24,250 nt of DNA from a virus, in the UHGV virus genome UHGV-1428471, one strand, 5' to 3'. This document shows, one piece after another, positions 10,904 to 12,684 of this stretch. A program made the position numbers and the translations under genes. Numbering within the stretch: the stretch's first letter is position 1; each line of letters opens with the position of its first letter. The notes under the pieces are model-generated. The model saw nothing but the letters and a program-made list of their open reading frames with translations, made no database searches and was not told the origin of the DNA.

Positions 10904-11959
10904 TCAGTCGTTACGCTTGTCTTCTGTCAGTCCCAGCGTGTACGGCTCAAAGCGGATCACTTCTTCGCCCAGCCAGTCGTTAAGCTCCTGCAGTCGCTTC
11001 TGCAGCGGCATCAGCTCGTTGCGGACAAAGACGCGGCTGGCCTTTTCCACATCACCAAAGCCGCCGGTATTGTTGGGAATAATGCCCATCATCTGCGGCG
11101 GTACGCGGTGCGCTGCCATCATGTCATCGCGGCTCACGTTCTTGATGTTCAGAAACTCATCTTTCGCCGCAACCTCCGATAACGGGATGATCTGGATGCC
11201 GTCCTTTTTACCGTTGGGCGAATACATAAACAGGTTGCGGAAGTTGCCCGGCCCTTTGGCGCTTTTCATTGCCTGGCGGATATTGTTCACGTCCTCCTGA
11301 TTCTGTGCTGCGTCGGTCATGTACATGATGAAACCCGCGTGGCTGCCGTTGATATAATACTTCCGGCGGAACAACGTTGCGGACTCGTTGAGCAGGGTTG
11401 ACGGGATGGCGGAAAGATAGCCGGGCAGCCCGTAAATCTCCTGGTTAATATCTGGCTCCAGCAGATGAAAGATGTTGCCCTGCGTAAATTCATAGGGCTG
11501 CGTGGTCAGGCCATACTGCACAAACCAGTAAGTGTCGAGGTCCACGCCACGGCGTGTGTACTTCGCCAGTGCTGGCTCCAGTGAGAGAACACCGCCGAGC
11601 CGGTTGGTGCGCTTTTCCAGATAGGCGTTACCGAACACCAGATAATCCTGGACGAAACGGGCAAAAGCCTGCTGGCTGAGCAGGCGGTGCGGGATGTAGG
11701 TGCTGCTGAGAATGTCACGCTTTACTGCAATCGGTGAACTGTGATGCACGGCGGCGCGATAGGTCCGCGCCAGTCCGTCAAAGCTCACCGGCGGCTCATA
11801 CCAGCGGTCCATCTGCACGCATTCCACGTAGTCCAGCAATTCGCGTCGGTCTAACACCGGCACCGGGTCGCCAAAACTGAACGCCTCCGCCGCAGCGCCG
11901 CCTGATTTAGCGTTGTGATCTACCGCTGCGCGGTTATTCTTGTTTTTACGTTTGCTCAT
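10904..11959 (-). CDS. Q: Portal (capsid portal vertex) protein, P2 gpQ family
   Basis: 351 aa; conserved blocks (FGDPVPVLDRRELLDYVEC…WYEPPVSF…HLLEPDINQEIYGLPGYLSA…RFEPY) match P2 Q as recalled; size about equal to P2 Q. Confidence 0.9.
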   Translation of the reverse strand: MSKRKNKNNRAAVDHNAKSGGAAAEAFSFGDPVPVLDRRELLDYVECVQMDRWYEPPVSFDGLARTYRAAVHHSSPIAVKRDILSSTYIPHRLLSQQAFARFVQDYLVFGNAYLEKRTNRLGGVLSLEPALAKYTRRGVDLDTYWFVQYGLTTQPYEFTQGNIFHLLEPDINQEIYGLPGYLSAIPSTLLNESATLFRRKYYINGSHAGFIMYMTDAAQNQEDVNNIRQAMKSAKGPGNFRNLFMYSPNGKKDGIQIIPLSEVAAKDEFLNIKNVSRDDMMAAHRVPPQMMGIIPNNTGGFGDVEKASRVFVRNELMPLQKRLQELNDWLGEEVIRFEPYTLGLTEDKRND

Positions 11960-12684
11960 GCCGCCTGCTCCTTGTCAGCCTGGGGCCATTCGCACATAAA
12001 CAGCATTTTCCAGTCCTCTGCTGATAACTCTTTTTTCATGTCATTCAGCCATTCATCATCAAAGAGCGCGGCTCCGGTTGCGAGCGTTGCCCCGGATGCT
12101 GCAGCGTCATCAGCGGTAAAGGTCATGCAGGTAGTGCTGTTGCGTGCAATCAGCTTCCTGTATTCCTGCCATGCTTCCGGACTGGGGCTTGGGGTGGTGT
12201 AGTAGGTAGCGTGATAGCGCGCGTGCATGGACAGGCTTTTGGCGAGCGCAATCATATTTCTTGGGGAGTCAGCCCAGGCATACTCTGACACGTAGACGTT
12301 TCCGTGGAGCGCGGCGGCGAGACTTTTCGGCCCGATAAAATAAATGATCGCACCGTTTGGTAGTTCCAGATGCGCTTTACCTGATTTTATTTTCCCAAGA
12401 TGCGTCCAGGCTGCTGCCTCACTTAAAAAAGCTGATATATAGGTTTTGACAGTCAGGGCTGATGCCGGGGTGCAGCCAAGAAAAATCTGGTTGCGTCCGG
12501 TATGCAGTGCATCGTTCAGGGCTTCGTAGGCGAAAAAGAAATCCGCGCCAGCCTGACGCATTTTTGTAAGCACGCGGTTTCTGCTGCGTGCGCCACTGTT
12601 CCATTCATGCTGGTAAGCAAAGAAAGGGCGATCTACAGGCAGGCTGGCGGTGGTCATGAGGTTCGTTGGGGTTGAGTGCATCAA
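11956..12684 (-). CDS. Terminase large-subunit ATPase-domain paralogue (truncated, degenerate Walker motifs)
   Basis: 242-aa ORF whose sequence aligns by eye to residues about 145-370 of the adjacent terminase P (e.g. FFAYEALNDALHTGRNQIFLG vs FFAREALIDAITTGRNQIFLS; GNVYVSEYAW vs GNLYLDEYFW; LFMCEW vs LLMCEF); start overlaps the P stop and stop overlaps the Q start (4-nt overlaps). Confidence 0.6.
   Translation of the reverse strand: MMHSTPTNLMTTASLPVDRPFFAYQHEWNSGARSRNRVLTKMRQAGADFFFAYEALNDALHTGRNQIFLGCTPASALTVKTYISAFLSEAAAWTHLGKIKSGKAHLELPNGAIIYFIGPKSLAAALHGNVYVSEYAWADSPRNMIALAKSLSMHARYHATYYTTPSPSPEAWQEYRKLIARNSTTCMTFTADDAAASGATLATGAALFDDEWLNDMKKELSAEDWKMLFMCEWPQADKEQAA

Follow-up and report, generated by a model that had tools for sequence, protein, structure and literature searches.

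Gene order and translational coupling at the P-Q junction

The window, by which we mean the whole 24,250-nt stretch of viral DNA that was analysed, belongs to a P2-like prophage and carries an additional gene, here called X, between the large terminase gene P and the portal gene Q. The genes and their putative ribosome-binding sequences are as follows.

12681 to 14447, minus strand: P, full-length large terminase (TerL), 588 aa, with the domains Terminase_5, Terminase_6N and Terminase_6C; the last nucleotide of its stop codon is shared with the X start (1-nt overlap)
12690 to 12693, minus strand: GGAG, Shine-Dalgarno-like sequence for X within the last P codons (V-E-I-F), its end 8 nt from the X ATG; read from the sequence
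11956 to 12681, minus strand: X, stand-alone copy of the TerL ATPase domain (Terminase_6N only), 241 aa; from the open reading frame, BLASTP, Pfam/PHROG matches and an AF2 model
11968 to 11973, minus strand: AAGGAG, Shine-Dalgarno-like sequence for Q within the X C-terminal tail; read from the sequence
10904 to 11959, minus strand: Q, portal protein, 351 aa; from the open reading frame and Pfam/PHROG matches; its ATG overlaps the X stop codon (ATGA)

An earlier note on this DNA had described X as a 242-aa open reading frame with 4-nt overlaps at both ends. The frame from 11956 to 12684 on the minus strand does exist, but its listed TTG start (12684) is not conserved among homologues, whereas the ATG at 12681 is conserved and gives 241 aa. 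Likewise, the 4-nt ATGA overlap between the X stop and the Q start stands, whereas at P the overlap from the conserved ATG is 1 nt. Six carrier junctions were read: five join the P stop to the X start as TGATG or TAATG, and the sixth (L017) has a P/X overlap of 4 nt, ATGA. GGAG-like purine runs occur at the position equivalent to the AAGGAG of Q in four loci (L003, L004, L006 and L013), and in SEN8, which has no X, the GGAG element found before X stands ahead of Q instead. The overlapping codons and internal ribosome-binding sequences suggest that X is co-translated with P and Q. Near X, the counts of internal promoter and terminator sites do not exceed shuffle expectation.

X lies in the -1 frame of P, and the window has a T6 run ahead of the P stop codon. 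A programmed -1 frameshift yielding a P-X fusion was considered and rejected as a conserved mechanism, since the T6 run is broken (TTC) or absent in four of the six X-bearing junctions; its presence in SEN8, without X, also counts against such a fusion. A 464-aa "fusion" frame in one locus (L082) is an artefact of frameshifts within P, and the X of that locus is intact.

X consists of the TerL ATPase domain only

X residues 22-233 align with residues 145-368 of the neighbouring P at 31% identity (BLASTP, E 2e-32), and identity to other P2-like TerLs is 30-37%, which bears out the earlier description of an extra ATPase-core paralogue between Q and P. The reported absence of the N-terminal ~145 aa of P and of the nuclease domain holds as well: Pfam finds Terminase_6N alone in X (PF03237, 50.7 bits against a cut-off of 22), and Terminase_5, Terminase_6N and Terminase_6C in P. 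A Terminase_5 (gpP-like) N-terminal domain is not found in X by Pfam, in line with the alignment beginning at P residue 145, and Pfam gives no match in X to the RNase-H-like nuclease domain (Terminase_6C); the X protein stops where the ATPase domain does, at the point corresponding to MCEF in P. Additionally, some 26 residues from the 290-320 region of P have no counterpart in X in the alignment. The conserved TerL loop T-N-x-x-T-A-Q-(S/G), which lies directly upstream of Walker B, is lost in X and in all short paralogues described below, where a variable G-P-x-S-L-x-A-A-L segment takes its position. Taken together with the motifs described in the next section, X has in common with the P2-type TerLs (P2 gpP and 186 gpW) the homology and fold of the ATPase domain, YQ, K-x-R-Q-x-G, the catalytic Glu and TPS, and differs from them in lacking Terminase_5, the nuclease domain and the TNxxTAQ(S/G) loop and in replacing the Walker-A Thr by Asp and the Walker-B Asp by Ser.

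The AF2 model of X, built from a 112-sequence alignment, has a pLDDT of 89 (a shallow family alignment gave 48). Its top Foldseek matches are TerL ATPase domains, with TM scores up to 0.73, and the best PDB match is the ATPase domain of T4 gp17. The curated models of PADLOC defence and NCBIfam named families give no match for X, P0072, P0060 or P0063. In the P74-26 terminase, the arginine finger R139 lies ~11 residues before the catalytic Glu. A PDB sequence search with P as query returned chance collagen matches only, and residue-level mapping of this finger was therefore replaced by a loop comparison, from which we infer its position in X.

Coupled substitutions at the two Mg-ligand positions

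The active-site motifs of X are located as follows.

12541 to 12564, minus strand: Walker-A-like P-loop KMRQAGAD, residues 40-47; Asp47 stands where TerL has its Mg-ligand Thr; invariant in alignment A1
12283 to 12303, minus strand: Walker-B-like strand GNVYVSE, residues 127-133; Ser132 takes the place of the Walker-B Asp, and the catalytic Glu133 is kept
12187 to 12195, minus strand: motif C, TPS, residues 163-165; as in TerL, conserved

KSRQIGATY of P becomes KMRQAGADF in X, and GNLYLDEY becomes GNVYVSEY; the substitutions had been quoted correctly in the earlier note (SRQIGATY to MRQAGADF, LYLDEY to VYVSEY), and they hit both Mg-ligand positions. In the X model, the Walker-B-like segment is a β-strand (E128-132). 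Both substitutions are invariant among the aligned family members (A1). Furthermore, all 38 full-length family clusters and 18 short representatives combine a Walker-A Asp with a non-Asp residue at Walker B, which in this rewired subfamily is Ser, Pro, Gly, Ala or Leu, whereas full-length TerL representatives combine a Walker-A Thr/Ser with a Walker-B Asp (56 of 56). Asp at both positions occurs once, in P0159, a misaligned fragment that was discounted. The P-loop Lys and Gln, the catalytic Glu, YQ (the adenine motif) and TPS are invariant in A1, the Gly is also kept in X, and the P-loop Arg is kept except in two loci, where it is His.

On sequence evidence, the Walker changes are fixed and coupled rather than the product of drift, the Walker-A Asp being always accompanied by loss of the Walker-B Asp, and the pattern looks less like simple loss of the carboxylate than like its transfer from Walker B to Walker A. 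With Lys, Gln, Gly, catalytic Glu, TPS and YQ kept and the carboxylate apparently relocated, X may bind nucleotide or even hydrolyse it. To call the motifs "degenerate", as had been done, is misleading for substitutions that are invariant in A1 and coupled in 38 of 38 full-length clusters; nor is the label "ATPase-dead" established, given the residues kept and an Arg present in all but two loci. The Walker-A/Walker-B carboxylate swap offers a clean natural experiment for P-loop chemistry.

X is conserved under purifying selection but patchily distributed

A family search recovers about 42 protein clusters of 232-241 aa with the same motifs. At 70 further loci, X is intact in 65, cut by contig ends in 3 and affected by a deletion in 2; its length is 227-241 aa in ~65 loci, and the order P-X-Q with overlapping codons is found at every locus with enough flank. 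A1 contains 52 invariant positions with members down to 50% identity, and the family persists at 35-45% identity and occupies a second genomic position. Across homologues, ω (dN/dS) of X is 0.18-0.24 in unsaturated pairs and 0.06-0.15 in core regions, and no region of X has ω above 1. The carriers' hosts are Enterobacterales, and X is carried intact by MLG42, a plaque-forming phage (PMC11126057). Judged from these substitution patterns, X is an intact gene under purifying selection, strongly so at YQ, the P-loop Lys/Gln, the catalytic Glu and motif C. The earlier alternative of a recombination remnant is refuted by the conserved length, synteny, invariant motifs and dN/dS of ~0.2 in unsaturated comparisons.

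Comparison of the Q-P junctions of relatives places X in a minority. Among E. coli genomes, 21 have X, compared with 1228 that have a related P. No gene separates P from Q in the P2-type phage L-413C, as had been stated for P2, nor in Fels-2, SEN8 and one Klebsiella phage; Fels-2, SEN8, SopEPhi and Klebsiella phages have flanks 91-95% identical and no X. X is thus not a universal packaging component with intact motifs, most relatives being without it, although some distant P2-like phages do have a canonical version. A clean in-frame deletion of X is found in a locus whose P is 99.3% identical to that of the window, and one deletion variant retains a 90-aa frame that still couples P to Q. X is a dispensable accessory gene.

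The alleles of X are far more diverse than their flanks. In each of nine loci checked, X has a lower GC3 than the P beside it, and dN of X is 3-8 times that of the P ATPase domain. In loci with P 95-98.5% identical to that of the window, X alleles are 57-63% identical to the window's X, and where P is 85-86% identical, X is 39-45% identical. In A1, the alleles are mosaic. By these comparisons, deep allele classes of X are shuffled, cassette-like, between near-identical P and Q flanks. X shows no specific association with the portal N-terminus, which is basic in all carriers but also in the non-carriers L-413C and L014; it is acidic in Fels-2 and SEN8.

Literature searches found no description of a TerL paralogue in P2-like phages, and the passages searched in the MLG42 paper (PMC11126057) and in a 5945-genome survey of P2-like viruses do not discuss X. 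The X family is an undescribed, fast-evolving accessory family of P2-like phages (Peduoviridae).

Related short paralogues and T4 vs.8

X fits among short, TerL-ATPase-only paralogues of Peduoviridae, which are 218-264 aa long and lie between P and Q or after gene A. RefSeq names them "terminase large subunit domain-containing protein". Members whose Walker motifs are canonical (P0057, P0060, P0064 and others) occupy the P-Q slot of other, distant P2-like phages. They share with X the architecture, the P-X-Q slot, the overlapping codons and the loss of the TNxxTAQ loop, but retain the Walker-A Thr/Ser and the Walker-B Asp and are nearer to TerL: they score higher with the TerL profile than with the X profile, and P0064 is 53% identical to its own P. 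On the other hand, three divergent P2-like prophages have, directly behind the replication gene A, members of a sister clade whose scores place them nearer to X than to TerL. The most TerL-like members suggest that X arose when part of P was duplicated into the P-Q junction.

By itself, the ATPase domain of TerL is enough to activate the immune proteins EcAvs2 and Upx, and EcAvs2 reads the terminase-bound ATP together with the Mg hydration shell (PMC13601566). EcAvs2 is also triggered by T4 vs.8, an uncharacterised stand-alone protein that resembles the T4 terminase ATPase domain (PMC13601566). Like X, vs.8 is a phage-encoded, ATPase-domain-only relative (~220 aa) of its own phage's TerL. Unlike X, it keeps canonical GKS and DE motifs, and its gene lies among denV, regB and vs annotations, not beside terminase or portal genes. 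Membership of X in a vs.8 family was rejected (hhalign of the family profile against vs.8, E 0.58), and with no detectable sequence relationship to the X family, vs.8 is of independent origin. It shows that stand-alone ATPase copies exist and can be seen by the TerL sensor EcAvs2. The anti-defence catalogue searched contains no TerL-like anti-Avs protein.

Possible functions of X

We favour, with a probability of roughly 40%, the reading that X is a functional, dispensable accessory gene whose product is a non-motor mimic of the TerL ATPase acting in genetic conflict; the main rival is a regulatory subunit of the packaging motor. X is a complete, autonomous copy of the TerL ATPase domain and would be unable to cut DNA and probably unable to dock on the portal or the small terminase subunit, which the Terminase_5 domain presumably contacts; lacking these abilities, it would be unable to package DNA itself. 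Instead, it would imitate the structure of the TerL face that binds nucleotide, might itself still bind nucleotide, and would engage factors that recognise the TerL ATPase domain, such as host sensors or rival elements, rather than serve as a stoichiometric part of the motor. A conflict role appears most likely in view of the patchy distribution, low GC3, fast protein evolution, shuffled deep alleles and early-operon sister clade. Against it, canonical-motif versions in the same P-Q slot imply that the rewired site is not required for the function of the slot. Furthermore, tight translational coupling within the P-Q packaging operon is equally expected of a packaging co-factor, no region has dN/dS above 1, and fast evolution with low GC3 could mean merely weaker constraint. 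Moreover, a TerL-like ATPase domain itself triggers EcAvs2, as T4 vs.8 does, so that X could be a liability rather than a shield.

A more specific form of the conflict reading, by itself unlikely, is that X and the early-operon sister clade are TerL ATPase decoys that occupy Avs1-3, Upx or similar receptors of Enterobacterales. The rewired Mg site could not present the ATP-Mg geometry read by TerL sensors and would block or poison activation, shielding the real terminase. If so, X would be the first anti-defence protein of a "self-mimic" kind, one that descends from the very viral protein being sensed. This would also account for its deeply divergent alleles, the conservation of its active-site face and an expression that is early or linked to P.

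The rival in which X is a regulatory, non-catalytic motor subunit is possible, if somewhat doubtful; like non-catalytic paralogues in other oligomeric ATPases, X would attach to the ATPase domain of P and adjust assembly, ATPase firing or the termination of packaging. This rival accords with the constant place of X between P and Q with overlapping codons, by which the proteins are presumably co-made, and with conservation of the entire ATPase fold and most nucleotide-pocket residues, and the missing TerL loop ahead of Walker B would be in keeping with a subunit that receives a trans-acting residue but supplies none. Yet the close relatives Fels-2, SEN8 and SopEPhi package without X, one locus has lost X with P and Q otherwise intact, and the genes of the sister clade belong to the early replication operon, away from the packaging genes; X alleles differ by at least 40% beside an almost unchanged P, with no sign of co-evolution. 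It is improbable that X is instead an active ATPase with a relocated metal-binding carboxylate and a task of its own on DNA or nucleotides, such as one at cos or in linking replication with packaging. A Walker-A Asp present only where the Walker-B Asp is gone would suit this, as would the catalytic Glu, P-loop Lys/Gln, YQ and TPS invariant in A1, and both family positions (after gene A and at the P-Q junction) lie within the gene A-P interval, in which we take the cos site to lie from its position in P2 rather than from these loci. On the other hand, the variety of Walker-B residues (Ser, Pro, Gly, Ala or Leu) retains no common chemistry there, His for the P-loop Arg is tolerated in two loci, X has no DNA-binding or effector domain, and the loop at the presumed trans-finger position is lost.

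Two further readings fare worse. Satellites of the P4 kind are common in Enterobacterales, the hosts of X, and a satellite such as P4 switches on late-operon genes of its helper prophage, but a decoy against hijacking by such satellites, one of the roles raised in the earlier note, is highly improbable: P4 has the same cos site as its helper and is packaged with the helper's terminase, so that it is not obvious how a TerL mimic could act selectively against it; nothing satellite-related was found in the neighbourhood of X; and the early-operon clade does not fit. It is scarcely credible that X is a decaying duplicate without function whose frame has survived by chance or only for the sake of the translational coupling of Q. 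Its dispensability, the 90-aa deletion variant that still couples P to Q and the Q ribosome-binding sequence within its C-terminal tail would agree with this reading, which was nevertheless rejected as contradicted by the selection and conservation data: ω of ~0.2 (0.06-0.15 in the core), 52 invariant A1 positions down to 50% identity, a constant 227-241 aa in ~65 loci, and a family that survives at 35-45% identity and also occupies another genomic position.

DNA packaging has classical models in P2 and 186, whose head genes (Q, P, O, N, M, L) are considered a fixed block. A selectively maintained extra gene inside this block in a minority of phages points to an unrecognised layer of terminase biology, either a natural "pseudo-terminase" that regulates the motor or a mimic in conflict with host immunity that senses this very domain. 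Both readings are testable, as a plaque-forming carrier (MLG42) and close relatives without X (Fels-2, SopEPhi and SEN8) exist.

Small accessory proteins that act on terminase by protein binding are known from satellites, namely SaPI Ppi and PICI Rpp, whose target is the small terminase subunit. The parallel with X is conceptual only: Ppi and Rpp are unrelated to it in sequence and fold, and they are satellite-encoded, whereas X is encoded by the phage.

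Gene X encodes a stand-alone TerL ATPase domain between P and Q

The window spans the left and central portions of a Fels-2/186-like prophage of the P2 family. Its gene order is integrase, a HEPN and GmrSD_N (DUF262) gene pair, CI, CII, Dam methylase, gene A and a DinI-like gene, then portal Q, X and terminase P on the minus strand, and scaffold O, capsid N and small terminase M on the plus strand; O, N and M are identified by family matches in syntenic loci, with ORF coordinates from the window. The HEPN and GmrSD_N genes (1355-3167, minus strand), flanked by the integrase and CI repressor genes, encode a RiboL-PSP HEPN domain and the GmrSD_N domain, respectively; the pair looks like anti-phage defence cargo in the prophage variable region. 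The genes around X are as follows:

10904-11959, minus strand, portal Q (ORF)
11956-12684, minus strand, X as listed (ORF, TTG start)
11956-12681, minus strand, X from the conserved ATG (241 aa)
12681-14447, minus strand, terminase P (ORF)

In homologues, the X start ATG shares one base with the P stop (TGATG or TAATG) at five of the six carrier junctions read, and the sixth, in L017, has a 4-nt ATGA overlap of P stop and X start. Because this ATG is conserved and the TTG at the listed start is not, the real X gene is 11956-12681. The earlier note had placed 4-nt overlaps at both ends of the insert; the one joining the X stop codon to the Q start (ATGA) stands, whereas that with P shrinks to 1 nt. 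A GGAG within the final P codons ends 8 nt upstream of the X ATG, an AAGGAG within the X tail lies at the same distance (8 nt) from the Q ATG, and promoter or terminator signals between P, X and Q do not rise above chance. Directly 5' of the P stop lies a T6 run (12683-12688, minus strand), with X in the -1 frame; judging from the sequence, slippage there could give a low-level P-X fusion, which was rejected as a conserved mechanism since the run is broken or missing at four of the six X-bearing junctions and occurs in SEN8, which has no X.

X aligns to P residues 145-368 (31% identity, E 2e-32), which bears out its proposed origin as a paralogue of the P ATPase core. Its sole Pfam match is Terminase_6N, whereas P contains Terminase_5, Terminase_6N and Terminase_6C; X does lack the N-terminal ~145 aa and the nuclease domain of P, as had been suggested. 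Moreover, X matches positions 123-371 of the PHROG 3746 profile ("terminase large subunit"; E 3e-93). Its AlphaFold2 model is confident (pLDDT 89, pTM 0.88, 112-sequence alignment), with the T4 gp17 ATPase domain as top PDB match (TM 0.73) and the ATPase domains of the P74-26, D6E and HK97 TerLs, together with the PhiV-1 terminase bound to Avs3, among the other best matches. Taken together, these data identify X as a complete, autonomous TerL ATPase domain with nothing besides.

X does not qualify as a TerL. Of five defining features it has one, the ATPase fold; the nuclease domain, Terminase_5 and a TerL-specific loop are absent, and the Mg ligands are rewired. Stand-alone TerL-ATPase-like proteins are already known as a kind from T4 vs.8, to which X is unrelated. 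X matches no NCBIfam or PADLOC model, its RefSeq name is domain-based only ("terminase large subunit domain-containing protein"), and no paper describing it was found, including the accessible part of a survey of 5945 genomes of P2-like viruses. What is new in X is its independent derivation, the distinctive rewiring of its active site, the fixed place of its gene within the head-gene block and the strikingly wide diversity of its alleles.

[quoted passage not shown]

In A1, the alignment of the X family (numbering of the 241-aa X), K40, M41, R42, Q43, G45, A46 and D47 of Walker A and G127, N128, Y130, S132 and E133 of Walker B are invariant. The same holds for TGRNQ, the YQ-motif Gln and two residues of TPS, Pro and Ser. 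Aligned to T4 gp17, whose motifs are SRQLGKTT and DE at 255-256, D47 falls on the Mg-ligand Thr and S132 on the Walker-B Asp. The substitutions noticed earlier in both motifs are real and fixed. Searching 1.8 billion representative proteins exhaustively with an HMM yielded many more short ATPase-only relatives (218-264 aa).

Walker residues in TerL and its short relatives (protein set; Walker A; Walker B; number)
Full-length TerL representatives; Thr/Ser; Asp; 56/56
Short representatives; Asp; non-Asp; 18
X-family clusters; Asp; non-Asp; 38
Short proteins or fragments; Thr/Ser; Asp; 22
Short proteins; Thr/Ser; non-Asp; 5
Any real case; Asp; Asp; 0

The single Asp plus Asp entry in the tabulation, P0159, is a fragment and was judged misaligned. 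The Walker-A carboxylate therefore appears only where the Walker-B carboxylate, replaced by Ser, Pro, Gly, Ala or Leu, is gone, and at the sequence level the changes in X are a coupled, fixed rewiring. They can be read either as a metal ligand moved from Walker B to Walker A in a site still in use, or as an acidic residue placed in the phosphate/Mg pocket beside K40 and R42 in a pseudo-nucleotide-bound state. In two close alleles (L051 and L053), the P-loop Arg at residue 42, invariant elsewhere, is His (KMHQAGAD), which argues against a strict requirement for hydrolysis. Additionally, a T-N-x-x-T-A-Q-(S/G) loop directly before the Walker-B strand is conserved in full-length TerLs and absent from all short paralogues; P74-26 TerL has its trans-acting arginine finger in this region, and the finger would map to the lost loop.

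X is maintained under purifying selection

Relatives of X form 42 protein clusters (53-99% identity; full-length members 232-241 aa) from Citrobacter, Salmonella, Escherichia, Leclercia, Klebsiella and Phytobacter; species-representative genomes add Pantoea and Atlantibacter, and 66 IMG/VR viral contigs carry a relative. Among 70 newly fetched loci, X is intact in 65 (227-241 aa), cut by contig ends in three and deleted in frame (residues 3-151) in two, L083 and L084, which are possibly one and the same phage. That deletion spans two ATGCAC hexamers (codons 1-2 and 150-151), a microhomology, and leaves a 90-aa ORF (2501-2773) beside a P 99.3% identical to that of the window, with P-to-Q translational coupling kept.

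The Q-P junctions of related phages show the order P-X-Q in every X locus with enough flank. Purifying selection, for which the earlier note had proposed a test, is evident from a dN/dS of 0.18-0.24 (Nei-Gojobori, unsaturated comparisons), falling to 0.06-0.15 in core segments (residues 21-69 and 108-166) for all pairs except the closest, whose value rests on few substitutions; no segment exceeds 1 in the segment-wise calculation. In the record of Escherichia phage 500465-1 (NC_049342, 3222-4979), frameshifts split both X and the portal gene; as X aligns gap-free over its full length to sister E. coli genomes, errors of sequencing are the likely cause. Constant length, synteny, invariant motifs and dN/dS refute a remnant of recombination, and the intact loci speak against decay through frameshifts or stops: X is a maintained gene. 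In another locus, on viral contig L082 (1817-2501), it is P that has a ~20-nt tandem duplication and frameshifts, with X intact downstream.

MLG42, a plaque-forming Yersinia phage and the sole isolated carrier, also has X intact, and X is not discussed in the accessible part of the paper describing that phage (PMC11126057). Table 1 there gives MLG42 a head of 128 nm and a tail of 234 nm, roughly double the dimensions of the 186-type phages studied alongside it, despite a genome of 31 kb; the difference may stem from the measurements and has no known link to X.

X behaves as a shuffled accessory gene

X occurs in 21 of 5426 complete E. coli genomes, against 1228 with a P detectable by megablast, mostly at 80-90% nucleotide identity. 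P and Q adjoin without an insert, with the same 1-base overlap, in L-413C (P2-type), Fels-2, SEN8 and a Klebsiella phage, in line with the adjacency previously pointed out for P2; X is absent from Fels-2, SEN8, SopEPhi, RE2010 and several Klebsiella phages whose flanks are 91-95% identical to the window. Compared within one and the same pair of carrier phages, X has accumulated 3-8 times as much nonsynonymous divergence as the P ATPase domain. X is 57-63% identical to that of the window where P is 95-98.5% and Q 85-96% identical, and 39-45% where P is 85-86%. Residues 1-20 and 70-107 form two-type mosaics (for example P0008 and P0012), and GC3 lies 0.07-0.30 below that of the accompanying P in nine of nine loci examined. 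By this behaviour, X is a dispensable, shuffled accessory gene.

The first ~25 portal residues are hypervariable as well (window 11890-11959; Q N-termini of L003-L021). All X carriers have a basic sequence here (MSKRKNK...), as do L-413C and L014, and Fels-2 and SEN8 have an acidic one (MSELEAL...); the indel boundary between carriers and Fels-2-type phages takes in this segment.

Short paralogues occupy two genomic positions

More distant P2-like phages carry short paralogues with canonical Walker motifs (P0057, P0060 and P0064) in the same P-X-Q slot. They score higher with the TerL-domain profile than with the X profile, and by this sequence measure are nearer to TerL; P0064 and its own P share 53% identity, pointing to a duplicate that is younger or evolves more slowly.

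Canonical-Walker short TerL paralogues
L097, 6001-6747
L017, 6001-6750
L012, 483-1238

Three divergent P2-like prophages carry members of a separate clade in the early operon, adjoining the 3' side of replication gene A; in these prophages no insert separates P from Q. The signature of the clade is W-Q...G-D-V-Y-x-[S/P]-E-W, its Walker A residue is mostly Asp (two Ser exceptions), and for nine of nine members tested the X profile gives a higher score than the TerL profile.

Members of the after-A clade
L014, 7001-7750
L022, 7001-7681
L024, 7001-7657

In the simplest history, based on a crude neighbour-joining tree, the ATPase domain of P would have been partially duplicated in tandem into the P-Q junction; the copy would have diverged, with the Asp/non-Asp switch, and moved at least once to the end of the early operon.

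Possible functions of X

Constraint on X is strong at nucleotide-pocket residues and much weaker elsewhere. X is presumably unable to cut or package DNA, and would act by presenting a TerL-like ATPase surface. We tentatively favour a role of some kind in genetic conflict (probability about 0.4) over the main rival, a regulatory partner that would join P in the packaging motor without catalytic activity. We consider this rival less likely, as a motor subunit is hard to square with dispensability, allele shuffling and the early-operon clade. Deep classes of alleles that recombine between conserved flanks are familiar from conflict loci, a pattern that weaker constraint alone might also produce.

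In Enterobacterales, the TerL ATPase domain by itself activates EcAvs2 and Upx. By way of a bridging ATP, EcAvs2 touches the ATP bound to the terminase and the hydration shell of its Mg, and recognition extends to T4 vs.8, a stand-alone ATPase that resembles TerL but is of independent origin (PMC13601566). The conflict reading at its most specific is that a mimic with an altered Mg site, which would be produced before or together with P, could fill TerL sensors without activating them; X could equally be an extra trigger of these sensors. The anti-defence catalogue searched contains no TerL-like anti-Avs protein.
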